From NCBI GenBank assembly GCA_964641255.1, contig CAZXMM010000001.1, forward strand, positions 143,757 to 207,756: 64,000 bases of DNA, in the 5' to 3' direction. This DNA is from an uncultured Gammaproteobacteria bacterium (GTDB lineage Bacteria; Patescibacteriota; Microgenomatia; JAMCZE01). This document shows, piece after piece, positions 18,156 to 59,604 of this stretch (the first letter of the stretch is position 1; each line of letters opens with the position of its first letter). Made by a program: the position numbers and the translations under genes. Under the pieces are notes generated by a model, which had not been told where the DNA came from, did not search any database, and saw nothing but the letters and a program-made list of their open reading frames with translations.

Positions 18156-20462
18156 ATGACCCGAACATTTCCTGTGATTGGCATGCACTGTGCTTCTTGC
18201 GCCGCAGTTATTAAGCGGAAACTGGAAAAAATTGACGGGATTGACTCTTGTGTCGTTAACTTTGGAACAGAAAGGGCTGAAGTTACTTTTAATCAAGCGA
18301 AGACCTCAGTTTCTAGGATGAATGAAGAGATCGGTCAACTGGGATACTCCCTAATGGATGCAGACATAACGATCGGTATGGATGACTCAGGCAACGTGGA
18401 CTACGCCTCAATGACACCCGTCTCTTCAGGCGTAAAGATCAAGGAACAAAAGCTCCGTGAGCTCACTAAGCTGAGGCACTACATTCTAATCGGCTTACCA
18501 ATGGTAGCCATAAGTGTGATTGTCATGGTGGCGGAAATTGGCGCTGAGCCTTTAAGACTATGGCCAAAGTTGCCAGAAATGGTGATGATTTTTTTTCACC
18601 ACCTGCTCCCGATTTTGGCTACTTATGCACTTTTTGTGGTTGGTGCTCCGTATCTTCGGGGGGTAGCGAGGTTTCTTAAATACCGAGTGGCCAACATGGA
18701 TACACTCGTTGGGATAGGAACGGCGGTGGCATTTTTTTATAGCTTTATTATTACTGCTTTTGAAGGCATTTTAGCGCCATTTATTAATACCCAACAAAAC
18801 TACTATGACGTTACTATCGTAGTTATTGGCTTTATTACCTTGGGTAAGTTTCTCGAGGCCAGATCAAAACTGCAAACTGGGGAGGCGATAGAAAAGCTCC
18901 TCGGATTACAAGCGAAAAATGCACTGGTACTTCGGGAAGGAAAAGAAATCGAACTTCCCATAAATCGGGTAGCGGTGGGTGATATCGTCATTGTTAAGCC
19001 CGGCCAAAAAATTCCGCTTGATGGAATAATTGTAGGGGGGAGATCTGCGGTTGACGAGTCCATGATTACCGGAGAATCGCTTCCTGTTGACAAGGAAGTA
19101 AATGACATGGTGATTGGGGCGACGCTGAATAAGCAGGGATCTCTTCGAATCAAAGTAACTAAAGTAGGTGGCCAGACAGTGTTGTCACAGATTATCACCA
19201 TGGTGGAGCAAGCCCAGGGTTCAAAAGCGCCAATAGAACGACTCGCAGACCAGGTGTCAGCTATCTTTGTCCCCATTGTCCTAGTGTTGGCTATTCTCGT
19301 TTTTACCATTTGGTTGGTAGTGGGTTCCCAGTTCCTACCTTTCTCTCAGGCCTTTACACTGGGGATTTTAAGTTTTGTTGGCGTTCTTATCATTGCCTGT
19401 CCTTGCGCCATGGGACTGGCTACCCCGACTGCTATTATTGTTGGAGTCGGTAAAGCGGCCCAAAGTGGCATTCTCATTAAAAACGCTGAAAGTCTGGAAA
19501 AGTTTAGCGGAGTCAACTTTGTAGTCATGGATAAGACCGGAACCCTAACTAAGGGTGAGCCACAACTAACTGATATTCGAGGGGTTAGTGAACAGTCAGA
19601 AGAAAAAGTATTGCAACTACTCGGTTCTTTAGAAACCCACTCCGAACACCCTCTAGCTAGGGCAATAGTGAAGAGGACGCAGGAGGTCAAAACTAAACTT
19701 CTAAACGTACAAGACTTTGTAGCACTGGAGGGAAGAGGACTCAGAGGGATAATTGGCAAAACAGAGTACTATGCAGGCAATCTTAAACTAGCAGCCGATC
19801 TTAAACTCCAAGTGGACGAAGATATAATCACAGAACTCGTCGGGGAGGGTAAAACTCCAGTCTTACTTTTGACTAAAAAAGAGATTCTAGCCTATGTTGG
19901 CATCGCCGATATTATTAAAGACGACGCAAAAACTACTGTTGCCCAGCTCCATAGTAGTGGAATCAAGGTGGCTATGCTCACTGGTGACAACAAAAAAACC
20001 GCTCAGTACATTGCCTCACAAGTGGGTATTGACCGAGTCATTGCCGAGGTGTTGCCTGGCGACAAAGCGAATGCAGTCAAGAAACTTCAAACCGAAGGCT
20101 TTAAAGTCGCCATGGTGGGTGACGGTATTAATGATGCCCCCGCCCTGGCCACGGCTGATGTAGGGATTGCGATGGGCACGGGGACTGATGTCGCTATTGA
20201 ATCAGCCGGCATTACACTTTTAGGTGGCCATATCTCTAAGCTTCCCAGAGCTATTAAGTTGGCTCGTGCCACTATGCGAACCATCAAAACTAATCTTTTC
20301 TGGGCCTTTTTCTATAATATTATTGGCATCCCTGTTGCGGCGGGGCTGTTGTATCCAGTCTGGGGAATCCTACTCAATCCTGCCGTAGCGGGGGCAGCGA
20401 TGGGACTGTCCTCAGTCTTTGTAGTTGGCAATTCACTCTTACTTAAAAGAGTTAAAATTTAG
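18156..20462 (+). CDS. copA: copper-translocating P1B-type ATPase
   Basis: N-terminal HMA domain [19 protein letters not shown] motif [18 protein letters not shown] phosphorylation site, GDGINDAP hinge. Confidence 0.95.
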
Positions 20463-30125: not shown

Positions 30126-31667
30126 ATGGACATAACCAAAATTGCTTTGGAACTGGAAAAAGAACTGCGCGGAGCTGCTGGGAAATTTGCTGACGAAGCA
30201 GTTGTTTCTGTTGGTACAGTTGAGTCAGTCAGTGATGGAGTGGCGACTCTAAGCGGTCTGTCAGCAGGTATGGTTGGAGAACTGATTGCTTTCCCTCATA
30301 ACATTATGGGAATGATTCTGAATTTAAGAGACCAAGAAGTGGGGGCAATTATTTTGGGCGATTACACGAAAATTCATCAAGGGGATGAAGTTAGAGCTAC
30401 CGGAAAAGTTCTTAAGATCAGGGCGTCATATAGCCTCTTGGGGAGAATTGTCGATCCCCTAATGCGTCCCCTAGATGGTAGAGGAGTAGTGGCGAGTAAA
30501 AAAGAAGACCAAGAATTACCTATCGAAAAAGTGGCCCCCGGAGTGATTGAACGCCAAGACGTTCATGTGCCGCTGCAAACCGGCATTAAAGCGATTGACG
30601 CTCTCGTTCCCATTGGTCGGGGCCAGCGTGAACTTATAATTGGCGACCGGGGCATTGGTAAGACTGCTCTAGCCGTTGATAGTATTATCAATCAGGCCAA
30701 GATTAACAAAACACTGGGTAGCGGTGAAAAACGGGTCCTTTCTATTTATGTGGCTATTGGTCAGAAGCAATCAAAAGTTGCTCAGGTGGTTGCCAAGCTG
30801 ACTGAAGCCGAGGCCTTAAAAGATACAATTATTGTCAGTGCGGCTGCTTCTGACCCCGCCAGTCTGCAGTATTTAGCCCCGTTTGCCGCTTGTGCTGTAG
30901 CTGAATACTTTATGTCTCTGGGGGAAGATGTCTTAATAGTTTATGACGATTTGTCCAAACACGCCTGGGCTTACCGAGAGATTTCTCTACTACTTCGGCG
31001 CCCGTCAGGCAGAGAAGCTTATCCAGGAGACATTTTTTATCTTCATAGTCGTCTTCTTGAGCGTGCCGCTCGTATGAGCGAAGAGAATGGTGGGGGGTCA
31101 ATTACTGCTCTGCCTATTATTGAAACACTAGCGGGGGACATTTCAGCTTACATTCCCACGAATGTTATCTCAATTACTGACGGCCAAATTTATCTTGAGC
31201 CCGATCTTTTTTACTCGGGTATCAGGCCAGCCATTTCTGTAGGACTATCGGTGTCTCGGGTGGGAGGCGATGCCCAGGTGAAAGCTATGAAGCAGGTAGC
31301 CGGAACCCTAAAGCTGGATCTGGCCCAATATCGTGAGTTAGCTGCTTTCGCACAATTTGGTTCAGACTTAGATGAAGCCACCCAAAAACGTCTTAATCGG
31401 GGGGTTAAGGTGACGGAAATCCTAAAACAACAGCAATACGCTCCGTTAAGTTTAACAGAGGAAGTGGCTTCACTCTGGTTGGGGGTTCGTGGTCATCTAG
31501 ACGATGTAGCGGTAGCACAAATTGCGGAATTCCTCCCGACTTTCCTGGAACAAATTAAAAAAACTACTTTTGCCAAAGATTTGCAAAAAGCCGGCAAGCT
31601 CACCGAGGAGATCGAAAAGCAATTAACCAGTGAGGTTATAACCCTAAAGAAGAAATATCTCAGTTAG
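30126..31667 (+). CDS. atpA: F0F1 ATP synthase subunit alpha
   Basis: Walker A GDRGIGKT; full-length alpha subunit similarity. Confidence 0.95.
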
Positions 31668-31679
31668 GATAATAAAACT

Positions 31680-34041
<2,362 letters not shown>

Positions 34042-43573: not shown

Positions 43574-43624
43574 AGCTTAGGAGCAGTAAAGCGATAATAC
43601 CACGGTGGGTGTATACTTAGGTAT

Positions 43625-44065
43625 ATGGTTGGAAAATTTCCCCCGGTAATTTTTCTCTACGGCGCGTTCCTGATTTCTTGGCTGGCGATGCTCGGCAGTC
43701 TGTTTTTTAGTGAGATTTGGCACTACCCACCCTGCGTACTTTGCTGGTATCAACGGATTTGCATGTATCCCTTAGTAGTCATTCTGGCTGTGGGTATTTG
43801 GCGAAAGAACAAGGAAATTCACCTCTACACTCTGCCCTTGGCCCTAATCGGTCTCCTAATCGGTGTCTACCACAACCTTCTTTACTACCGGCTCATTCCC
43901 GAGGCGATCGCTCCCTGTGTGGCGGGGATTTCCTGCACTACTAAATTTATTGAATGGTTCGGTTTTATTACTATTCCCCTTCTTTCTTTACTAGGGTTTG
44001 TTGCCCTGACCTTTTGTCTTCTGGTGTACTGGTGGGTAGTGGCAAAGAAGAAAACAGTCAAGTAG
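43625..44065 (+). CDS. disulfide bond formation protein B (DsbB/BdbC family)
   Basis: PCVLCWYQRICMYPL motif and 4 TM helices. Confidence 0.7.
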   Translation: MVGKFPPVIFLYGAFLISWLAMLGSLFFSEIWHYPPCVLCWYQRICMYPLVVILAVGIWRKNKEIHLYTLPLALIGLLIGVYHNLLYYRLIPEAIAPCVAGISCTTKFIEWFGFITIPLLSLLGFVALTFCLLVYWWVVAKKKTVK

Positions 44066-44076
44066 CGCTAAGTTAG

Positions 44077-44161
44077 CGGAGGGGGCGAGATTCGAACTCG
44101 CGGTATCTTGCGACACGGCGGTTTAGTAAACCGCTGCACTAGGCCACTATGCGACCCCTCC
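44077..44161 (-). tRNA. type-II (long variable arm) tRNA-Ser-like gene with anticodon loop UUACUAA (apparent anticodon ACU)
   Basis: hand-folded 85-nt cloverleaf: acceptor GGAGGGG/CCCCTCC, D-stem GCA/TGC, anticodon stem GCGGT/ACCGC, variable hairpin GTGTC-GCAA-GATAC, T-arm GCGAG-TTCGAAT-CTCGC. Confidence 0.6.
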
Positions 44162-44940
44162 TATTTATTTCGTTCGTGTCTGACAAACAGAAATGTTCCC
44201 ACAACTATAAACAGAGTTCCGGTAATTACCACGACCGCGATATCAATCATTGGGCTAAAAAGTACTGTTCTAGAATAATATGGTGTACCGAAGTAATAGA
44301 TACTGCGTAGCAAATCAACTGCGTAGGTCATGGGGGCAATCCGAGAAGCAATAAAGATGGGTAGGGGAAGATTGTGAATGGGATTAAATACCCCGGCCAG
44401 AAAGAATTGGGGGAAAAGCAGGAAGGGGAATATCTGATTGGCGGATTTTTGGTCGGACAGAGTGGACATGACAATAACCCCAAAAGCGCCGCCAAAGAGG
44501 GCCACTAAGAGGAAAAAGGGTAGCAGTCGGATCAGCGCTATCCAGTCCAGGGGGACACCTATTAAAATTCCCAGAGCAATGACTCCCACGATTTGGAGTA
44601 AGGAAACGCAGGTTTCCCCCAGAATCTTACCCAGTAAAATAGCATAGCGGGAGATAGGAGCAATAAACATTTCTTGAGCGAAGTCGTTTTGTCTATCCTC
44701 CACGAGAGAAATAATTCCTCCAGCTGTTGACTGAAACAAGGTCTGAGCAATCACCCCAATAAAAACGAATTCTAAAAAGTTATAGCCTAAATTCTCGCCC
44801 AAATTAGCCTGAAGACTGGTTCCTAAGACGCCAATGAAGATAGCTGGAAACACTAGACTAAAGGCGATTCGAGTTCTATCCCGCAACAGTTTGATTACGT
44901 CACGGCCGGCGATGGTAATAATGGCGTTAAGTAGTTTCAT
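44161..44940 (-). CDS. ABC-2 type transporter permease
   Basis: 259 aa, 6 TM helices, adjacent to ABC ATPase. Confidence 0.75.
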   Translation of the reverse strand: MKLLNAIITIAGRDVIKLLRDRTRIAFSLVFPAIFIGVLGTSLQANLGENLGYNFLEFVFIGVIAQTLFQSTAGGIISLVEDRQNDFAQEMFIAPISRYAILLGKILGETCVSLLQIVGVIALGILIGVPLDWIALIRLLPFFLLVALFGGAFGVIVMSTLSDQKSANQIFPFLLFPQFFLAGVFNPIHNLPLPIFIASRIAPMTYAVDLLRSIYYFGTPYYSRTVLFSPMIDIAVVVITGTLFIVVGTFLFVRHERNK

Positions 44941-45886
44941 GGTGCTGTCTGATTATTTGCACGTAAGCACTTTCCAGAGTGGGACTATGAATTTCCAAGT
45001 GGGTCAGTTGGGTTTTAAGGCCAGCTATAATTTCCTGTCCGGTATTTTCTCCGGTATTAATTTTAAATGGTCCATTCCCTTCAAAAGTCAGCCCTTTTTG
45101 GTTTAACTCTTTTGTTAAGCCCATTCGATCCTTGGCATCAAGCACAAGGTGGTTTTGGATCAGGGTTTTTTTGATTTCACTAGGAGTGCCTTTGGCTACA
45201 ATGGTCCCTTCATCCATAATGCAGACATAATCTGAAGCCTCAGCCTCCTCTAGGTAATGGGTAGTTAAGAAAATTGTTATCTCTTGGGACTTACGAATAT
45301 CTTGAAGATATTTCCAAAGATTTTGCCGGCTGATTGGGTCGAGTCCGGTGGTTGGTTCGTCGAGAAATAACACTTTGGGTTCGTGCATCAGGCTACGGAT
45401 AATCTCTAACTTACGTTTCATTCCCCCAGAGAGAGTTTTGACCGGCTTATGGAGATCCTTTTCCAGCCCTAGGACTCTGGCTAATTCGGCCACCTTGTCT
45501 TTATAGGCTTGGGGCATGAGGGTGTAGCTAGGCAGATAGGGATAGAGATTATAGAGATTAGCGTGGAAGCGAATATTTTCTTCGGCGGTTAGATTGAGAT
45601 CTAAACTGGGATTTTGAAAAATTACGCCAATTTGTTGTCTGACAGCGGCGGGATTTTTACTGACATCGTAGCCGGCGATAGTTACAGTGCCTGCACTGGG
45701 GGAAAGGATAGTTGTTAAGATAGAAATAGTCGTGGTCTTTCCGGCTCCGTTGGGGCCCAGCAGGGAAAAGAATGAACCCTCCTCGACATAAAAAGAAACC
45801 GCCTTAACGGCATCAGCAGGCGCCTTTTTGTAACGCTTGGTTAAATTAGTGACTTCGATAATTCGAGATTTAACTTTCTTGGCCAT
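44927..45886 (-). CDS. ABC transporter ATP-binding protein
   Basis: Walker A GPNGAGKTTT, signature LSGGMKRKL, Walker B LFLDEPT. Confidence 0.9.
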   Translation of the reverse strand: MAKKVKSRIIEVTNLTKRYKKAPADAVKAVSFYVEEGSFFSLLGPNGAGKTTTISILTTILSPSAGTVTIAGYDVSKNPAAVRQQIGVIFQNPSLDLNLTAEENIRFHANLYNLYPYLPSYTLMPQAYKDKVAELARVLGLEKDLHKPVKTLSGGMKRKLEIIRSLMHEPKVLFLDEPTTGLDPISRQNLWKYLQDIRKSQEITIFLTTHYLEEAEASDYVCIMDEGTIVAKGTPSEIKKTLIQNHLVLDAKDRMGLTKELNQKGLTFEGNGPFKINTGENTGQEIIAGLKTQLTHLEIHSPTLESAYVQIIRQHHETT

Positions 45887-45924: not shown

Positions 45925-46114
45925 GCGGTATTCATTGTACAAAATTCGAACCTTTTTTGAAACCAATCCTGACGAAGAAATCTGAACTGCACCCCGCCAC
46001 AATATTTCTGGGGCAAAGGAGGCGGGGTGATGGACTCGCCCGCGCGGAGGAGGGGTCTGGGGAGGAATCCGCGCGGGCTTCGGCTTTTTGTTTTGGCGAA
46101 ATTCTGGCGGGCTA
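45925..46114. repeat. IR-A left copy (190 bp, GC-rich, internal hairpin GCCCGCGCGG/CCGCGCGGGC)
   Basis: base-for-base reverse complement of 48866..49055, verified over the full length by hand. Confidence 0.85.
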
Positions 46115-47941
46115 TTAAAACTTGCCTTCTATATTCTCAAACAATTTGGTTAAATTATCTTTCGTCGTTGTGTCCAAATTGATTGAGGTTCCATTTTGGC
46201 AAGTTTCTAAAAATTTCTTTGCGAGCAAAACCTTATCCAGTTTACTCTTTTTTACATACTCCGAATTAGATTCCGTATAAGTTTTGCTCGTATCATTCAA
46301 CACAAATTCTTGAAAATTAGCCGGCGAGAAAATATCCTCCACACTCCCTGCGGTACTTAGCACAGCAAGAACTAAATCTTTTGTAACTAACCAATTGTCT
46401 TTTAGATTTTTCTCGCCATCCTTTTTCCCTTTGTCGTTGTCGTAGAGATATACAACCTTTCCACCCCAACCATGCAATATAGTACCTACAACTGGCATAT
46501 TTCCAGCTCCACCACCGAAAATAAAGTTCACGCTGTCTTTGCTAAGGATTTTCTTAAACGCATTTAGATAGTAGAGATCGGAAGCTCCCTCAACTACAAT
46601 ATTATTTACTTTATCTAAAGCCGTAATTCCTACACTTAATTCCAATCCAATGGCAGTCATAATAGGAGTTAAGGTTTCTTTATCCGCCAAAGCGTGAACT
46701 TTATTTTCTATTTTCGTTCCTGCTTTTTTTGTACGATGAATCAATCTAATTCGATTTAGCTTGTCGGCTTCCAAAAGATATGGCGAATGCGTTGAAAATA
46801 CTAACTGGACTTCTTTCGCTGAATCTTCAAGTTTGCTCAAAATATCTTCTTGAGCTTTGGCGTGGAGAAATAAGCCTGGTTCGTCAATCAAAATAATGTT
46901 TGGGACATCCTCATTTGCTCTTGCTGACACTTTTATATAAAACGCGAGGTGCCATTGTCTACCTTTACTTCGCAAACTTGGCTCATACGGGTAGCCGTCT
47001 TCTTGAATCCAAAACTGGAGGTCTTGAGAATCCCAATCAACGCTCAAACTTGAAACATCTTGCGTCCAAAACTTTTTGTAATCGTCATTGAGGTTGATAT
47101 TTATATCTGTTTTATGTTTCTGCTTATCGCGAGCAGTAGAAGTTTTGATCGTGGCAACATTCAAATCGCTGATTACTGACAAATCCTTAATCCATTCATT
47201 GGTTTCAAGTTCCGCAAAAGGTATCTTGTTTGGAAAAATATCTTCAAACGAATTAAAGAACACGAAATTTGGAATCCATCGTTTTAGAGCTTCTAAAAAC
47301 TTTTCCTCTATTGCAGTTAAATTTTCAAGATTTTGAATTTCTGTTTCTATCTCGGCTAAAAGTTTTGGCAAATTCTCACGATCTTTTTCATCTATTTGTG
47401 GGATATTTGGTGTAGTAGCAGTTTTGAAAGCAGTAAGAAGGGTTTTCTCATTCGTTAAATCAGAAAATTCAAAATCAAAGAAAGTTCCTCCTAACTGTGG
47501 ATATTTCGTGTGCAATGCTTTTACTTTGCCCCACTTGTCCTTGATTGATTTTTGAATTTTCTCAATTTCCTTTGCTCCAAAAAGGTCATTCTTCAGAGTA
47601 TCTTCTCCAAAAGTGTAGGTATCAGGAAAAGTTTTTATGATTTCGAGTTCAATATTGGCGATTGCTTTTTGGGTGCTACCTATCTCGGTTAAAACTTCTT
47701 TAACGGTATCTCTTTCAACGGTAAAAGTTATAGAGATTTCAGGTATCGCTTCTGGTGATTTAATAGGTTTAGCACTCTCTCTTATTTTTCCGTCCGTATC
47801 AAAATCCTCTAATGCTTCAAGAATAGAAGTTTTCCCAGATTCGTTTTTCCCAGCAAGAATGGTAATTGTATCCGTTAAATAGCAATCGCCGCTGTCGGTT
47901 ATGGACTTAAAATTTTTAATTCTAAATTTCTTAAGTTTCAT
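46115..47941 (-). CDS. OLD-family nuclease: N-terminal ABC-type ATPase + C-terminal TOPRIM domain
   Basis: Walker A LAGKNESGKTSILEAL, Walker B ILIDEPGLFLH, FSTHSP; C-terminal TOPRIM-like NIVVEGASDLYYL ... YLYDNDKGKKDGE. Confidence 0.7.
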   Translation of the reverse strand: MKLKKFRIKNFKSITDSGDCYLTDTITILAGKNESGKTSILEALEDFDTDGKIRESAKPIKSPEAIPEISITFTVERDTVKEVLTEIGSTQKAIANIELEIIKTFPDTYTFGEDTLKNDLFGAKEIEKIQKSIKDKWGKVKALHTKYPQLGGTFFDFEFSDLTNEKTLLTAFKTATTPNIPQIDEKDRENLPKLLAEIETEIQNLENLTAIEEKFLEALKRWIPNFVFFNSFEDIFPNKIPFAELETNEWIKDLSVISDLNVATIKTSTARDKQKHKTDININLNDDYKKFWTQDVSSLSVDWDSQDLQFWIQEDGYPYEPSLRSKGRQWHLAFYIKVSARANEDVPNIILIDEPGLFLHAKAQEDILSKLEDSAKEVQLVFSTHSPYLLEADKLNRIRLIHRTKKAGTKIENKVHALADKETLTPIMTAIGLELSVGITALDKVNNIVVEGASDLYYLNAFKKILSKDSVNFIFGGGAGNMPVVGTILHGWGGKVVYLYDNDKGKKDGEKNLKDNWLVTKDLVLAVLSTAGSVEDIFSPANFQEFVLNDTSKTYTESNSEYVKKSKLDKVLLAKKFLETCQNGTSINLDTTTKDNLTKLFENIEGKF

Positions 47942-47948
47942 AATCTTT

Positions 47949-48560
47949 TTAAGTATTTCTTGCCTTTCTTTCTTGAATACTTTTTAGTAGGAAGGGTGCG
48001 GCTTCTTCCTGCGTTTTACCCGATTTGATGCTATTACAAATCAGACAACTTGTTTTTAAGTTTTCTTTTGTATGCTTTCCACCCTTGTATTGAGGAGTTA
48101 GATGGTCAAGCGTTGCGTTTTCTGTAGTTACTTTCTCTCCACAATAAAAACAAGTGTATTTATCACGCTCAAAGATTTCTTTTCGTTTTTCTGCGTTGGT
48201 AAAATAATCTTCTTCAATAGGGTCAGCAGTGATTGAAAGTTTTTCTTTTACCAATGGAATTTCTTCTGGCAGAAAAATACTATAGAGCGTTCCCTCGCGG
48301 TTAGTGTCGCCAATCTTAATACACGATTTTTCTTCTAGTCCAGATACAAGTTTTGTAATATGAGCGTAATTCGATTTTTCACCGCGAGAAGAACCAAGAT
48401 TGTCAGCAATAGTCCTTTTACCAATTCGTATTTCTGCTGAACCATTTTTTATATACGAATTACGCAAAAAGAAAATGTAAAGTCCCGCTTCGTATGGAGT
48501 TAAGGATGGTAAGAGTAGATCAGTATATTGCTCAATAATTTTTTGTAAATCTTCTTTCAT
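47949..48560 (-). CDS. HNH endonuclease domain protein with N-terminal wHTH-like region
   Basis: C-terminus CFYCGEKV...LDHLTPQYKGGKHTKENLKTSCLICNSIK HNH motif. Confidence 0.7.
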   Translation of the reverse strand: MKEDLQKIIEQYTDLLLPSLTPYEAGLYIFFLRNSYIKNGSAEIRIGKRTIADNLGSSRGEKSNYAHITKLVSGLEEKSCIKIGDTNREGTLYSIFLPEEIPLVKEKLSITADPIEEDYFTNAEKRKEIFERDKYTCFYCGEKVTTENATLDHLTPQYKGGKHTKENLKTSCLICNSIKSGKTQEEAAPFLLKSIQERKARNT

Positions 48561-48563
48561 AAT

Positions 48564-48761
48564 TTATTTCACTATTTCCTCCATCGGAACGCCTAGCGAC
48601 TTGGCGATTTTTTGAATTGTTTGAACGCTTGGCTTGGTAACGACACCACCCTCAATTTTTGTAAGGGTAGAGTATTTGATATTGGCTTTTTTCGCCAAGT
48701 CGTCTTGCGTTAATCCTTGTTTTGCTCGTATCCTCTTTATGTTTTCAGATATAGTTGCCAT
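48564..48761 (-). CDS. XRE-family helix-turn-helix transcriptional regulator
   Basis: 65 aa; IKRIRAKQGLTQDDLAKKANIKYSTLTKIE HTH_3 pattern. Confidence 0.75.
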   Translation of the reverse strand: MATISENIKRIRAKQGLTQDDLAKKANIKYSTLTKIEGGVVTKPSVQTIQKIAKSLGVPMEEIVK

Positions 48762-48865: not shown

Positions 48866-49055
48866 TAGCCCGCCAGAATTTCGCCAAAACAAAAAGCCGA
48901 AGCCCGCGCGGATTCCTCCCCAGACCCCTCCTCCGCGCGGGCGAGTCCATCACCCCGCCTCCTTTGCCCCAGAAATATTGTGGCGGGGTGCAGTTCAGAT
49001 TTCTTCGTCAGGATTGGTTTCAAAAAAGGTTCGAATTTTGTACAATGAATACCGC
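48866..49055. repeat. IR-A right copy (inverted, 190/190 identical to 45925..46114)
   Basis: see IR-A left. Confidence 0.85.
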
Positions 49056-49057
49056 AA

Positions 49058-49171
49058 ATTTTCGAAAAGGGTTTCGGAACCAAAAATATGGTCGGCGCGA
49101 AGCGCCGACTGTTCTGCATTCCCCCCACAAAATCCTGATTCTGCAAGGATTCGCCACGCTCCGCGTGGCTC
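49058..49171. repeat. IR-B left copy (114 bp)
   Basis: exact reverse complement of 50601..50714; with one mismatch the match extends 6 nt further on each side. Confidence 0.85.
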
Positions 49172-49198: not shown

Positions 49199-50815
49199 AT
49201 GAATAATCACACCAGAAAGTTTTTTATATACACTCGCAAATCAACCGATACAGAGGATCGGCAAGTGAGAAGCATTTCAGACCAACTGGCCGAACTAAAA
49301 CAATTGGCGATAAAAGAGGATATTGATGTCGTTGATATTTTCGTGGAAAAACAAACCGCTAAAGCTCCGGGTCGGCCAGTATTTAATGAAATGCTTCTCC
49401 GTATCGAGCAAGGTGAGGCAAATGGAATTTTAGCTTGGCACCCCGACAGGTTAGCGAGGAATAGTGTTGACGGTGGAAAAGTTATTTACTTGCTCGATAC
49501 GGGAAAGATTGCCGAGCTGAAATTTCCAACTTTCTGGTGTGATCCGACACCGCAAGGCAAATTCATGCTCTCAATCGCTTTTTCGCAATCCAAGTATTAT
49601 GTTGATAACCTGTCGGAAAATATCAAGCGTGGTCATCGCAACAAAGTGAAAGACGGAATATGGCCTCAAATGTCTCCGCTCGGATATGTAAATGTGAAAG
49701 GTGCTGGAATTATTCCCGATATTGAAATTGCCAAACTGATTAAAAAGACATTTGAGGCATATTCGTCTGGGTCTTTCACTTTGCGACAACTCCGGGACAA
49801 GTTTAATGGACTTGGATTGAAGCGAAAAAGCGGAAAGGAACTTGCGGTGTCGAACTATCAGCAAATCCTCAAAAATCCTATCTACACAGGACTAATGAGA
49901 TATAACGGAGAGATTTTTGAGGGGAAGCACGAACCGATTATCACAAAGAAACTTTTTGATTCCGTTCAAGAAGTGATGATGAAAAAGAGCAAACCACATT
50001 CCAAAGGCCTAAAACCATTTTTATACAGAGGATTTTTCCGTTGCGGAGAATGTGGATGTTTCATCACTACCGAAACGCAGAAAGGTCATAATTATTTGAG
50101 GTGTACCAAACGGAAAAATCCTTGTGAACAAAAATATGTTCGTGAGGAAATCATCACTTCTAAAATCAGAACGGAATTACAAAAAGTTTCTTTGCCACTC
50201 GATTGGGCAAATTGGATGATTGTCGAAAACGAGAAAGATCGGCAATCAGAAACCCAATCGAGTGAGATTTTTTCTCAAAAAACAAAAGACGAAATTTCTC
50301 TTTTGGATTCCAAAATTGAGAAGCTGATGAACGCATATCTTGAAAACGCACTTTCGCTAGACGAATATCGTGATTCTAAAAACAAGTTGGTAAGCTCAAA
50401 ACAGCTTCTCAAAGAGAAATTATCAGCTTTTGAGAAAAAATCTCATAATCGGTTCGAACTTGCTGATAGATTCATAAAATCCAGTATAAACAATATGGAA
50501 TTGGCAAACGAGGGAATTCCCGAAAAGATTTTTCGGGAATTCAAAAAAGTCGGTTCGAACTTTCAAATTAAGGACCGAACCGTACTTTTTGAGCCACGCG
50601 GAGCGTGGCGAATCCTTGCAGAATCAGGATTTTGTGGGGGGAATGCAGAACAGTCGGCGCTTCGCGCCGACCATATTTTTGGTTCCGAAACCCTTTTCGA
50701 AAATCTGCGGAGGAGGCGAGATTCGAACTCGCGCGAGCTTGCGCTCAATTGCTTTCCAAGCAATCGGAATGGGCCACTATCCGACTCCTCCAACTTTAGA
50801 ATTCTATCAAATTGA
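49199..50815 (+). CDS. large serine recombinase (resolvase catalytic domain + recombinase domain + zinc ribbon + coiled coil)
   Basis: N-terminus YTRKSTDTEDRQVRSISDQ (catalytic Ser context), zinc ribbon CGECGC...C...C. The annotated 3' end runs through IR-B and into tRNA-Ser without a stop, so the functional C-terminus probably lies before about 50600. Confidence 0.8.
   Translation: MNNHTRKFFIYTRKSTDTEDRQVRSISDQLAELKQLAIKEDIDVVDIFVEKQTAKAPGRPVFNEMLLRIEQGEANGILAWHPDRLARNSVDGGKVIYLLDTGKIAELKFPTFWCDPTPQGKFMLSIAFSQSKYYVDNLSENIKRGHRNKVKDGIWPQMSPLGYVNVKGAGIIPDIEIAKLIKKTFEAYSSGSFTLRQLRDKFNGLGLKRKSGKELAVSNYQQILKNPIYTGLMRYNGEIFEGKHEPIITKKLFDSVQEVMMKKSKPHSKGLKPFLYRGFFRCGECGCFITTETQKGHNYLRCTKRKNPCEQKYVREEIITSKIRTELQKVSLPLDWANWMIVENEKDRQSETQSSEIFSQKTKDEISLLDSKIEKLMNAYLENALSLDEYRDSKNKLVSSKQLLKEKLSAFEKKSHNRFELADRFIKSSINNMELANEGIPEKIFREFKKVGSNFQIKDRTVLFEPRGAWRILAESGFCGGNAEQSALRADHIFGSETLFENLRRRRDSNSRELALNCFPSNRNGPLSDSSNFRILSN
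50601..50714. repeat. IR-B right copy (inverted), inside the 3' end of the recombinase ORF and abutting the tRNA-Ser(GGA) 3' end
   Basis: see IR-B left. Confidence 0.85.
50718..50801 (-). tRNA. tRNA-Ser (anticodon GGA)
   Basis: 84-nt type-II cloverleaf; anticodon loop TTGGAAA; T-arm GCGAG-TTCGAAT-CTCGC. Confidence 0.85.
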
Positions 50816-51650: not shown

Positions 51651-51667
51651 ACTTAGTACCCACAGTG

Positions 51668-51739
51668 TGCTCCTAAGAGGAATCGAACCTCCATCACAGC
51701 CTTCGGAGGGCCGTACTCTATCCATTGAGCTATAGGAGC
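51668..51739 (-). tRNA. tRNA-Arg (anticodon CCG)
   Basis: 72-nt cloverleaf; anticodon loop CTCCGAA. Confidence 0.8.
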
Positions 51740-51827: not shown

Positions 51828-51834
51828 ACCATGG

Positions 51835-51906
51835 CGCTCCCAGACAGAATCGAACTGTCATCACTAGGTCCGCAACCTAGTACTCTATCCATTAAGCTAT
51901 GGGAGC
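51835..51906 (-). tRNA. tRNA-Arg (anticodon reads GCG)
   Basis: 72-nt cloverleaf nearly identical to the Arg-CCG gene except for the anticodon arm; loop TTGCGGA. Confidence 0.7.
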
Positions 51907-52956: not shown

Positions 52957-52990
52957 CCCCAATTGAGTGTTGAGTGGATTAAGACATATA

Positions 52991-54412
52991 ATGAACCAAA
53001 TGATCGTGACTAAAAAAACTAAGATTGTGGCTACGCTCGGGCCAGCCTGTGACAGTGTCGACCAAATCAGCTCTCTTATTGGAGCCGGCGTCAATGTGTT
53101 TCGTTTTAATATGAAACACAACGAATACGCTTGGCACGAGGAGCGAATGATAAGAGTGAGACAGGTAGCCCAGCAAATGGCGGCGGTAGTGGGGATACTA
53201 ATTGACCTCCAAGGCCCCGAGATTAGGATTGCCACTAGGGATCAACAGGTGGTCAATCTAGCCAGTGGGCAGGAGGTAGTATTTGGTAATAGCTTTGCCG
53301 ATCCTACGGTACAAATTCAACTGTCTCACGAAAACATTCTCCATTCGTTAGTGGCTGGTGATAGTTTGTTAATTGATGACGGTTTCGTCGAGCTCGTGGT
53401 TGTCAAAAGGGAGGCTGACAAAGTTGTGGCCAGGTCTCTTGAGGCCGCAGTTATAAAAAATCACAAGGGTTTAAATATTCCCGCCAAGGAGATAGATTTA
53501 CCGTCGTTAACTGCCAGTGATTTAGAGAAACTGGAGTTAGCGGCAAAACTAAGAGCAGACTTTGTTGGCCTGTCTTTTTGCCGAACCAAGACTGACCTGG
53601 AAATCTTAAAAAAGGAAATGGCTACCCGCGGTGTTAGCGCTAAAATTGTGGCCAAAATTGAAAATCAACAGGCCCTTAACAATATTGACGAGATTATTGA
53701 AAACGCCGATGCCGTTATGGTGGCTAGGGGCGATTTGGGGGTGGAGGTGCCCATGGAACAGCTGGCTTTTTGGCAAACCGAGATGATAAATAAATGCCGG
53801 CTGGCCGGTAAGCCGGTGATTGTGGCGACCCAAATGCTTCAGTCGATGATAGATAATCCCCGGCCCACCCGGGCTGAAGTCACTGACGTTGCTAACGCCG
53901 TGTTGCAAGGCACTGACGCAGTAATGCTCTCTGGGGAAACCGCTTCCGGTAAATACCCGGTTAAAACTGTAGAGATTATGGCCCAAATTGCCAACTATAA
54001 TGAGCAAAAAGCCAAAGTTCTAGAGTTAAACCAATCGCCAACTACTATGACGCAGTTGATTGCTTTGGGTGGGGCGCAAATTTTGCGGCAAACTGGCAAA
54101 CTGGCTATTGACGCCATTTTAGTTTTCACCCAAACAGGTAGAACTGCTGAAGTGATTTCCTCCTTTAGGTCCACAGTGCCGATAATTGCGGTTACCGATC
54201 AACAGGATAGTATTGGGAAATTGACCTTGTCTTACGGGGTGAATCCGGTTTTTGAAGAATTTCCCAGTGGCGAATTCTTGACTCCCACTGCGGTGGTTAC
54301 TCGGCTGGTAGCCAAAGGGGTTTTTAAGAAAGACCAGACAATTTTAGTTGTCCACGGTCAGCACTGGAAGACTCCGGGCCTCACTAACTCACTGTCAATT
54401 ATTACAGTTTAA
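52991..54412 (+). CDS. pyk: pyruvate kinase
   Basis: KIVATLGPA, MVARGDLGVE and C-terminal allosteric-domain similarity; start at the ATG at 52991. Confidence 0.9.
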   Translation: MNQMIVTKKTKIVATLGPACDSVDQISSLIGAGVNVFRFNMKHNEYAWHEERMIRVRQVAQQMAAVVGILIDLQGPEIRIATRDQQVVNLASGQEVVFGNSFADPTVQIQLSHENILHSLVAGDSLLIDDGFVELVVVKREADKVVARSLEAAVIKNHKGLNIPAKEIDLPSLTASDLEKLELAAKLRADFVGLSFCRTKTDLEILKKEMATRGVSAKIVAKIENQQALNNIDEIIENADAVMVARGDLGVEVPMEQLAFWQTEMINKCRLAGKPVIVATQMLQSMIDNPRPTRAEVTDVANAVLQGTDAVMLSGETASGKYPVKTVEIMAQIANYNEQKAKVLELNQSPTTMTQLIALGGAQILRQTGKLAIDAILVFTQTGRTAEVISSFRSTVPIIAVTDQQDSIGKLTLSYGVNPVFEEFPSGEFLTPTAVVTRLVAKGVFKKDQTILVVHGQHWKTPGLTNSLSIITV

Positions 54413-57155: not shown

Positions 57156-57245
57156 TGGCGGAGGAGACAGGATTCGAACCTGCGCGAGCCTTGCGGCTCA
57201 GAGAGTTAGCAACCCTCCGCAATGGACCAACTATGCGACTCCTCC
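57156..57245 (-). tRNA. tRNA-Ser (anticodon GCT), 3' CCA encoded
   Basis: 90-nt type-II cloverleaf; anticodon loop TTGCTAA. Confidence 0.85.
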
Positions 57246-58743: not shown

Positions 58744-58748
58744 ATATG

Positions 58749-59161
58749 TGGAGATGGGGGGAATGATCCCCCGTGTGAAATCACGACCTCTAAACATCTA
58801 CAAGCTTAGATGATTCTGGAATTTCAAAGCAATCAATCGAATCATCAAGAAAATTACCTCTAGATTTATTGTCTTAGTTTATTAAAGAAAATCAGCCTTT
58901 AATAACAGCGTCTTGGCTGTGTTTATGCTCCAAAGATCCCACCAAGAGAAGACCTTGGGAACAGACTTACGCTACTTGAGCGTAGGCAAAAGCAAAATTG
59001 CTTTTGCGCGTTGCGGAAAGAGCTTTTTCAAGCTTTTCGTAAAACGCGGTCAGTGTGGATTGTGTTCCAGCACTTAAGTTTTCGATACCGTCTTTTACGA
59101 TGAAGGTATCCTAATCGGCTTGCAGTTTTTAAAGTGCGACTTCGTCGATTCGTACATCCCC
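58749..59161 (-). ncRNA. ssrA: tmRNA (ssrA) candidate
   Basis: 5' GGGGATGTACGAATCGACG pairs with 3' CATCTCC to form a tRNA-like acceptor stem; G5/C5 T-arm near the 3' end; internal ORF ending GCT CAA GTA GCG TAA; immediately downstream of smpB. Confidence 0.55.
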
Positions 59162-59166
59162 ATTTT

Positions 59167-59604
59167 TTACTCTTTTCCTCTTAAAGCTTGTTCAACTTCG
59201 CGATCCTCAGTGCGTTTTTTTATGGATGCTCTTTTATCCCACTTTTTCTTACCTTTGCCAATGGCGATCTCCAGCTTGAAGAGGTTGCCCTTATTATACA
59301 GTGCCAAAGGGACTACGGTCAAACCGTCTTTAGCCACTTTGGTCGCAAGAGAGAGGAGTTGTCTTTTATGAAGAAGTAGCCTGCGGCTACGGGTAGGCTC
59401 GATGATTTGCTGCGAGTTTTGGTAAGGATGGATGTGGGCTCCTACTAAAAAGGCTCCCCCGTCTCGGAAGTGGACAAAAGCCTCTTGGAGAGAAATTTGC
59501 CCGGCTCGTACTGATTTAACTTCGGGACCCAAAAGAGCGATTCCTGCTTCCAGGGTCTCTAAAATATCATAATTAAATCTGGCGGCACGATTTTCCACTC
59601 TCAT
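59167..59604 (-). CDS. smpB: SsrA-binding protein
   Basis: full-length SmpB similarity (KSVRAGQISLQEAFV ... LLLHKRQ). Confidence 0.9.
   Translation of the reverse strand: MRVENRAARFNYDILETLEAGIALLGPEVKSVRAGQISLQEAFVHFRDGGAFLVGAHIHPYQNSQQIIEPTRSRRLLLHKRQLLSLATKVAKDGLTVVPLALYNKGNLFKLEIAIGKGKKKWDKRASIKKRTEDREVEQALRGKE

Follow-up and report, generated by a model that had tools for sequence, protein, structure and literature searches.

The tRNA-Ser(ACU) gene and its position

According to ARAGORN, the window (the whole stretch of DNA that was analyzed, 64,000 nucleotides) carries eight tRNA genes, one of which is a tRNA-Ser with the anticodon ACT, called as tRNA-Ser(act) at 44076-44161 on the minus strand. 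The features on which the analysis turns are listed below, with the basis of each assignment in brackets.

44076..44161, minus strand: tRNA-Ser(ACU) gene, class II, discriminator G73, no encoded CCA (ARAGORN, Rfam, fold, family covariation)
44123..44129, minus strand: anticodon loop U32-U33-A34-C35-U36-A37-A38 (sequence reading; the same in 85/85 family members, the five obtained through the permease among them)
44102..44117, minus strand: long variable arm with a 5-bp stem and a GCAA loop, a class-II feature recognized by SerRS (fold, covariation)
44161..44940, minus strand: ABC-2 type permease gene, the last base of whose TAG is position 1 of the tRNA (open reading frame; Pfam PF01061/PF12698)
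44927..45886, minus strand: ABC transporter ATPase, first gene of the putative operon (open reading frame; PF00005)
51667-51739: tRNA-Arg(CCG) (ARAGORN)
51832..51906, minus strand: tRNA-Arg(GCG) (ARAGORN)
57156..57245, minus strand: tRNA-Ser(GCU), the ordinary AGY decoder and a divergent paralogue of the ACU tRNA (ARAGORN, Rfam, comparison)

An earlier note on this DNA placed the gene 1 nt from the permease stop; the two genes in fact overlap by 1 nt, G1 of the tRNA (44161) being the last base of the permease TAG. Because of this overlap, tRNA-Ser(ACU) is probably co-transcribed with the ABC-transporter genes, the permease lying upstream on the same strand. A promoter-like site is found at 45961-45934, upstream of the ABC ATPase, in a region where such sites are not above chance, and a promoter and terminator scan around tRNA-Ser(ACU) gave matches that were not above the shuffled expectation.

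Structure of the tRNA

Read on the minus strand, the 5' part of the gene is GGAGGGG-UC-GCAU-AGUGGCCUA-GUGC-A-GCGGU-UUACUAA-ACCGC-C, and the 3' part continues as GUGUC-GCAA-GAUAC-C-GCGAG-UUCGAAU-CUCGC-CCCCUCC-G. The cloverleaf has stems of 7/4/5/5 bp (acceptor/D/anticodon/T) in addition to the 5-bp variable arm; the final pair of the D stem is U-G, the anticodon loop UUACUAA has 7 nt and the T loop is UUCGAAU. The minimum free energy of the fold is -38.7 kcal/mol (z = -3.8). The anticodon occupies 44127-44125, so that A34 falls on base 44127 of the window. The elongator-tRNA elements are all canonical: U8, A14, the D-loop G18G19, U33, and T54-Psi55-C56 and A58 of the T loop are present, and they are invariant in the family alignment described below. 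The Rfam model RF00005 matches 44077-44161 over all of its positions (1-71 of 71) with 52.1 bits against a gathering score of 29, within the range of the four other tRNA-Ser genes of the window (45.6-52.9 bits). The canonical serine-type cloverleaf with A34 that the earlier note had read from the sequence is thus confirmed by ARAGORN, Rfam and the fold, and the covariance score, which the earlier note had named as a possible sign of a pseudogene, is at the level of bona fide Ser tRNAs.

The 3' CCA is unencoded in six of the eight tRNAs of the window, tRNA-Ser(ACU) among them, and its absence here is therefore normal for the genome. Only the Arg(GCG) and Ser(GCU) genes encode it; with CCA encoded in two of eight genes, the organism must depend on a CCA-adding enzyme.

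SerRS recognizes the long variable arm, the acceptor stem and G73 of its tRNA and ignores the anticodon. The serine identity set of Escherichia coli and Thermus thermophilus comprises G73, the pairs G1-C72, G2-C71 and A3-U70, C11-G24 and a variable-arm stem of at least 4-5 bp. All of these elements are present in the tRNA-Ser(ACU) family. On every feature tested, the predicted gene product is a tRNA and a tRNA-Ser, and its new part is the anticodon.

Distribution of the family

A protein search with the permease against contigs of one genome per species returned 18 loci. Named relatives among them are Candidatus Woesebacteria and Amesbacteria, several of the names given to metagenome-assembled genomes being evidently wrong; homologues with 71-75% identity likewise bear the name Candidatus Woesebacteria. 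On the evidence of these relatives, the window derives from a bacterium of the Candidate Phyla Radiation (CPR) of the Microgenomates type. In 3 of the 18 loci (L008, L012 and L018) a tRNA-Ser(ACT) lies downstream of the permease, and what separates these tRNAs from that of the window is a set of compensatory changes in three stems (acceptor, anticodon and T).

Metagenome contigs were then scanned with the 5' half of the tRNA as a pattern in which position 34 and three variable positions were set to N. With position 34 left free, 97 contigs matched, 79 with A34 and 18 with G34. Two more ACU tRNAs (L118 and L119) came from contigs encoding close permease homologues; their sequences do not fit the search pattern, yet the loop is again UUACUAA. 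In total, 85 low-GC contigs carry A34. The tRNA sequence played no part in finding five of them (L008, L012, L018, L118 and L119); these five share the order permease, then tRNA-Ser(ACU). The GC content of all A34 contigs lies between 29 and 49%. The viral contig collection contained no match to tRNA-Ser(ACU), and a phage origin was rejected on this ground.

The G34 contigs are of another kind. All but one (17/18) have 60-75% GC, which places them in other phyla. One sequence type or near-identical versions of it account for 16 of the 18, and 15 of the 18 adjoin Arg(GCG); L068 and L094 differ from this main type and adjoin other Ser tRNAs. Judged from their sequences and neighbors, most of the G34 matches are ordinary Ser(GCU) tRNAs of another phylum that share the conserved 5' half. 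The earlier note had reasoned that G34 in related genomes would imply a sequencing error at this position; contigs with CPR-like GC content show A34, L094 (G34, 48% GC) being the lone exception.

By permease identity L117 is the closest relative (84%); the permease of this contig is followed by dnaG after 104 nt in which there is no tRNA, which means that the ACU gene can be lost or relocated. The same stretch of this contig (2432-2535, corresponding to 43574-44160 of the window) also lacks the DsbB/BdbC-like gene found at 43625-44065 of the window.

The open reading frames within 4 kb of 81 ACU tRNAs were clustered. No dedicated partner gene was found among them: the best families, a GIY-YIG protein and a ComF-like protein, occur in 16/81 loci, and the neighborhood is therefore regarded as just a variable tRNA cluster. 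The usual setting of the gene is indeed an ordinary tRNA cluster, for example Leu(CAG)-Ser(GCU)-Ser(ACU).

Selection on the cloverleaf

The 66 distinct ACU sequences were aligned and the 26 cloverleaf pairs counted. Standard pairs occupy 99.9% of the 1712 pair cells, and changes on both sides are found at 11 of the 26 pairs, with 223 cells showing a double-sided change. The covariation score of 0.348 compares with 0.104 in shuffles, none of 500 of which reached the observed value, and with at most 0.087 in a control with slid partners. In the variable arm, four of the five pairs show compensatory changes across the family.

Every helix that varies is kept by compensatory changes; no variation occurs in the D stem. 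The search pattern by which most family members were gathered fixed columns 10-48 (D arm and anticodon arm) and C35/U36, and part of the invariance in this region is therefore a product of the way the family was collected. Most of the compensatory changes are found in the acceptor stem, variable arm and T arm, on which the pattern set no constraint, and the variable pair of the anticodon stem (A-U, C-G or G-C) lay at N positions of the pattern. G1-C72, G2-C71, A3-U70, G4-C69, C11-G24 and G73 are invariant in the 66 sequences and common to the other Ser tRNAs of the window. The ACU cloverleaf is under purifying selection, with A34 fixed and the gene intact, and there is little doubt that the gene is functional and conserved.

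These data bear directly on the suspicion that the window holds a non-functional copy, whether through a sequencing or assembly error at position 34, decay of a paralogue or a chimera made by integration of a mobile element. Several features invite this reading: a serine-recombinase element lies nearby, a normal GCU tRNA is present in the window, and the T arm together with the 3' acceptor strand is 89% identical to tRNA-Ser(GGA) over 37 nt, the T arm itself being identical to that of tRNA-Ser(GGA) at 50707-50791, as had been noticed before. However, A34 recurs in 85 independent contigs from many samples, compensatory changes maintain every varying helix, the Rfam score is that of other Ser tRNAs, and in genomes that lack the element this T arm is still the consensus of the family. 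L117, moreover, has no such element, and its tRNA-Ser(GGA) immediately adjoins the ABC operon; the element therefore belongs to Ser(GGA) and not to the ACU tRNA. A defective or artefactual copy is thus scarcely credible. Two of the three origins offered by the earlier note fall with it: a decaying paralogue does not agree with 66 distinct sequences that keep their pairs, and an integration hybrid does not agree with a full-length family that usually has the same T arm in many genomes without the element. The third, a variant decoder, is the one favored by the evidence.

Relation to tRNA-Ser(GCU)

ACU and GCU tRNA-Ser genes are co-resident in at least 35 other contigs as well as in the window. 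In 29 of these 35 loci the GCU gene precedes the ACU gene on the same strand, and in 25 of the 29 no more than 211 nt separate the two, a layout that looks like an old tandem duplication; the same-strand adjacency also suggests co-transcription. The arrangement in the window is unusual, the two genes being 13 kb apart and the ACU gene ending the ABC-transporter operon. The description of the ACU copy as redundant holds in so far as a GCU tRNA co-exists with it, but the copy is kept by selection.

The two tRNAs have the same class-II architecture, G73, the pairs G1-C72, G2-C71 and A3-U70 and a U32-U33-N-C-U-A37-A38 loop, as in bacterial tRNA-Ser(GCU) generally, from which the ACU tRNA differs in having A34 instead of G34. 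Sequence comparison agrees with the reported likeness between its 5' half and that of the tRNA-Ser(GCU) at 57156-57245, and this half is nearly identical to the GCU tRNAs of other phyla. Over the whole length, the ACU tRNAs form a tight family of their own: the nearest neighbor of each is always another ACU tRNA, and the mean distance within the family is 0.14, as against 0.33 (minimum 0.24) between the ACU and GCU tRNAs of the same contig, a difference of about 33%. The co-divergence of ACU and co-resident GCU tRNAs is weak (Spearman 0.10, permutation p about 0.04) and is therefore not relied on. A special 32-38 pairing was considered as a feature of the ACU tRNA and rejected, U32 and A38 being equally present in the GCU tRNAs.

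The most likely ancestor of the ACU tRNA is tRNA-Ser(GCU), by tandem duplication. A duplicated tRNA-Ser(GCU) would then have undergone the change G34A, and the product would have been inherited vertically in a Microgenomates-type (Woesebacteria-like) CPR lineage. Because SerRS is blind to the anticodon, the G34A copy would have kept its serine identity.

Genetic code and codon usage

AGU is used more often than any other Ser codon of the window (303 AGT, as against 158 AGC). The ratio AGT/(AGT+AGC) is 0.66 in the window and 0.62 in the other ACU loci, and the same ratio in the other NNY boxes is 0.38-0.79 and 0.57-0.77, respectively. Since the value for AGU falls within this range, there is no codon-usage signature that would explain retention of the tRNA, and co-adaptation with codon usage was rejected as the reason for its existence.

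AGA is the most used Arg codon, with 192 occurrences in the window and 1361 in the related loci. In the ABC genes, AGA codons stand mainly opposite Arg residues of the orthologues (58 of the 108 cells listed, followed by Lys with 27), mostly encoded by CGN, and those of the ATP synthase subunits align with Arg of solved homologues. AGT codons align with Ser, Thr or Ala in homologues. Besides the ABC genes, those used in this check encode a CopA-type P-type ATPase, the alpha and beta subunits of F1 ATP synthase and pyruvate kinase (housekeeping genes at 18156-20462, 30126-31667, 32515-34041 and 52967-54412). From these alignments the genetic code of the lineage looks standard, AGA and AGG being Arg codons.

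In a reassigned or deliberately ambiguous code, an unmodified A34 would superwobble over AGN, and AGA and AGG would be partly or wholly Ser. Unmodified A34 can read all four codons of a box in Mycoplasma and in mitochondria, and an ACU anticodon has been measured to read AGG at 0.36% (PMC11066159). On the other side, AGA aligns mainly with Arg in the orthologues and in ATP synthase, it is the most used Arg codon, and its reading by ACU is below detection in E. coli (PMC11066159). Reassignment is very improbable.

A role outside decoding would put the lack of a codon-usage reason for an extra AGU decoder in another light. The tRNA might supply serine to a tRNA-dependent transferase, act as a regulator or decoy, or serve as a reserve copy spared by an anticodon-specific nuclease, and the gene missing at the orthologous site of L117 suggests an accessory character. 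Such a role is decidedly unlikely: the elongator elements are all canonical, no protein gene is consistently linked to the tRNA, and its usual place is in ordinary tRNA clusters.

State of A34

Whether A34 is converted to inosine bears on how the tRNA reads the AGN box. In the related loci 30 Arg(GCG), 7 Arg(CCG) and no Arg(ACG) genes are found, and the window itself has Arg(GCG) and Arg(CCG). The presence of Arg(GCG) and absence of Arg(ACG) suggest decoding without inosine-34. Shulgina and Eddy (PMC8629427) reported that CPR appear to lack tRNA-Arg(ACG) and to use Arg(GCG), Arg(UCG) and Arg(CCG), and that inosine wobble is unused in some deep-branching bacteria. The pair Arg(GCG)/Arg(CCG) without Arg(ACG) corresponds to the archaeal-type CGN decoding reported there for CPR.

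TadA was sought with a deaminase-motif regular expression in the window and by tblastn of E. coli TadA against 750 kb of DNA; together the searches covered 64 kb of this genome and about 0.7 Mb of related DNA. Neither a deaminase motif nor a TadA match was found in the 64-kb window or the A34 loci, which cover a small fraction of each genome. The sole TadA-like match (L019, 64-396 on the minus strand) has 37% identity to E. coli TadA over 111 aa; it lies on a non-CPR contig of 71% GC in which, even so, tRNA-Arg(GCG) adjoins tRNA-Ser(GCU). A literature search on TadA in CPR gave nothing useful.

The main rival to an unmodified A34 is its conversion to inosine by a TadA-like enzyme that has no Arg(ACG) substrate in this lineage. 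The tRNA would then read AGU, AGC and, weakly, AGA, as a broader AGY decoder. Genomically encoded A34 is converted to inosine in most organisms (PMC8007984), an engineered split-box Phe-tRNA(AAA) is A-to-I modified in E. coli (bioRxiv 10.64898/2026.05.15.725136), and the ACU loop keeps U33-A34-C35 and A37-A38 of a TadA substrate. The loop departs from the substrate motif of tRNA-Arg2 (U33-A34-C35-G36-A37) at position 36, which is U and not G. In E. coli, an orthogonal tRNA carrying the ACU anticodon in an Arg2-like loop received no inosine from TadA; it read AGU at 9.4% and AGG at the low level given above, AGC and AGA being below detection (PMC11066159). I34 would also invite Arg-to-Ser errors, because AGA is the most used Arg codon. 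The count of 0 Arg(ACG) against 30 Arg(GCG) and the reports on CPR and deep-branching bacteria (PMC8629427) speak in the same direction, as does, weakly given how little of each genome was covered, the search for a deaminase. Inosine at this position is therefore considered unlikely.

A wider version of the alternatives, in which A34 carries a lineage-specific modification (inosine from a retargeted deaminase, or one not yet described) or superwobbles, and Ser/Arg ambiguity at AGR codons is tolerated or exploited, has a slim chance of being correct. If true, it would constitute a new decoding mode in a split codon box.

A proposed AGU decoder

The reading that we favor, and hold with some confidence, is that tRNA-Ser(ACU) is a functional extra Ser isoacceptor of this CPR lineage whose unmodified A34 makes it an AGU-specific decoder. 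We infer that the tRNA is expressed, serylated and unmodified at A34, and that its reading is specific for AGU. In such a scheme it would be transcribed, in the window, together with the upstream ABC-transporter genes, released by RNase P and 3' processing, and completed by post-transcriptional addition of CCA. SerRS would charge it with serine. A34 would stay unmodified, which is likely because the lineage shows no sign of a TadA/inosine-34 system, and the ACU tRNA would read AGU through a Watson-Crick pair between A34 and the U of the codon. AGC and, by wobble, AGU would be read by the GCU tRNA of the same genome.

The rarity of wobble-A tRNAs is a long-standing puzzle of the genetic code, sharpest where two amino acids share a box. 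A 2021 review (Ehrlich et al.; PMC8007984) calls A34 of the Ser-Arg box 'universally missing' and gives the same verdict on every split-box ANN anticodon except that of Ile, and seven split-box tRNA(ANN) are given as universally absent in a recent preprint (Raval et al., 2026; bioRxiv 10.64898/2026.05.15.725136), in which such tRNAs, engineered in E. coli, were more often deleterious. Our own search of the literature on Ser(ACU) or Ser-ACT, incomplete in its coverage, returned eukaryotic database mentions and engineered tRNAs and no bacterial report. The conserved and selected tRNA-Ser(ACU) family is a natural exception to a rule stated as universal: a bacterial lineage keeps this tRNA, apparently without an inosine system, and the exclusion is not absolute.

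Three kinds of known tRNA may be compared with it. Mycoplasma capricolum tRNA-Thr(AGU) and yeast mitochondrial tRNA-Arg(ACG) have an encoded A34 in systems without TadA or out of its reach (PMC3711424; PMC11066159), as is likely here. They serve four-fold boxes, where extra reading is harmless, whereas tRNA-Ser(ACU) serves the split AGN box, where misreading of AGR would put Ser for Arg. The TadA/inosine-34 tRNAs, namely Arg(ACG) and the Leu(AAG) and Thr(AGU) of Leuconostocaceae/Oenococcus, have in common with it the encoded A34, U33, C35 and A37-A38; tRNA-Ser(ACU) differs in its U36 in place of G36, its split box and a lineage with Arg(GCG) and without Arg(ACG). An engineered Methanocaldococcus jannaschii tRNA-Tyr(ACU) in E. 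coli bears the same anticodon (PMC11066159), but it is artificial, with another tRNA body and amino acid in a TadA-bearing host, whereas tRNA-Ser(ACU) is natural and conserved.

Serine is indicated as the permissive case because SerRS ignores the anticodon, and it may be the only split-box amino acid for which an anticodon-blind synthetase permits a tRNA of this kind. tRNA-Ser(ACU) also offers a definite case in which to test what normally forbids such tRNAs, be it misreading, modification or another cause. Annotation pipelines should not flag Ser(ACU) of Patescibacteria as a pseudogene.

Other features of the window

A perfect inverted repeat of 190 nt (45925-46114 / 48866-49055) surrounds 2751 nt of low-GC DNA that encodes an OLD/AAA-like ATPase (46115-47941), an HNH protein (47949-48560) and an XRE regulator (48564-48761). 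The left arm of this repeat forms the region upstream of the ABC operon, whose last gene is tRNA-Ser(ACU). A directly adjoining inverted repeat of 120 nt (99%, 49052-49171 / 50591-50710) encloses most of the open reading frame of a large serine recombinase. The region may represent a module that inverts or moves, or else an artefact of assembly.

The recombinase open reading frame (49199-50815, plus strand) runs into or through tRNA-Ser(GGA) (50707-50791, minus strand). Homologues with 28-55% identity (L001 2419-4002, L112 428-2056, L062 9335-10990 and L020 3-530) likewise run into or through tRNA-Ser genes; the gene concerned is Ser(TGA) in L001 and the ACU gene in both L112 and L062. The pattern suggests that integrative elements of one family use the tRNA-Ser genes of this lineage as targets.

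A standard one-piece tmRNA (80.9 bits) is located at 58746-59161 on the minus strand, with an open reading frame of 145 aa just upstream (59167-59604), and in several of the related loci SmpB genes are found close to the ABC operon or to the ACU tRNA.
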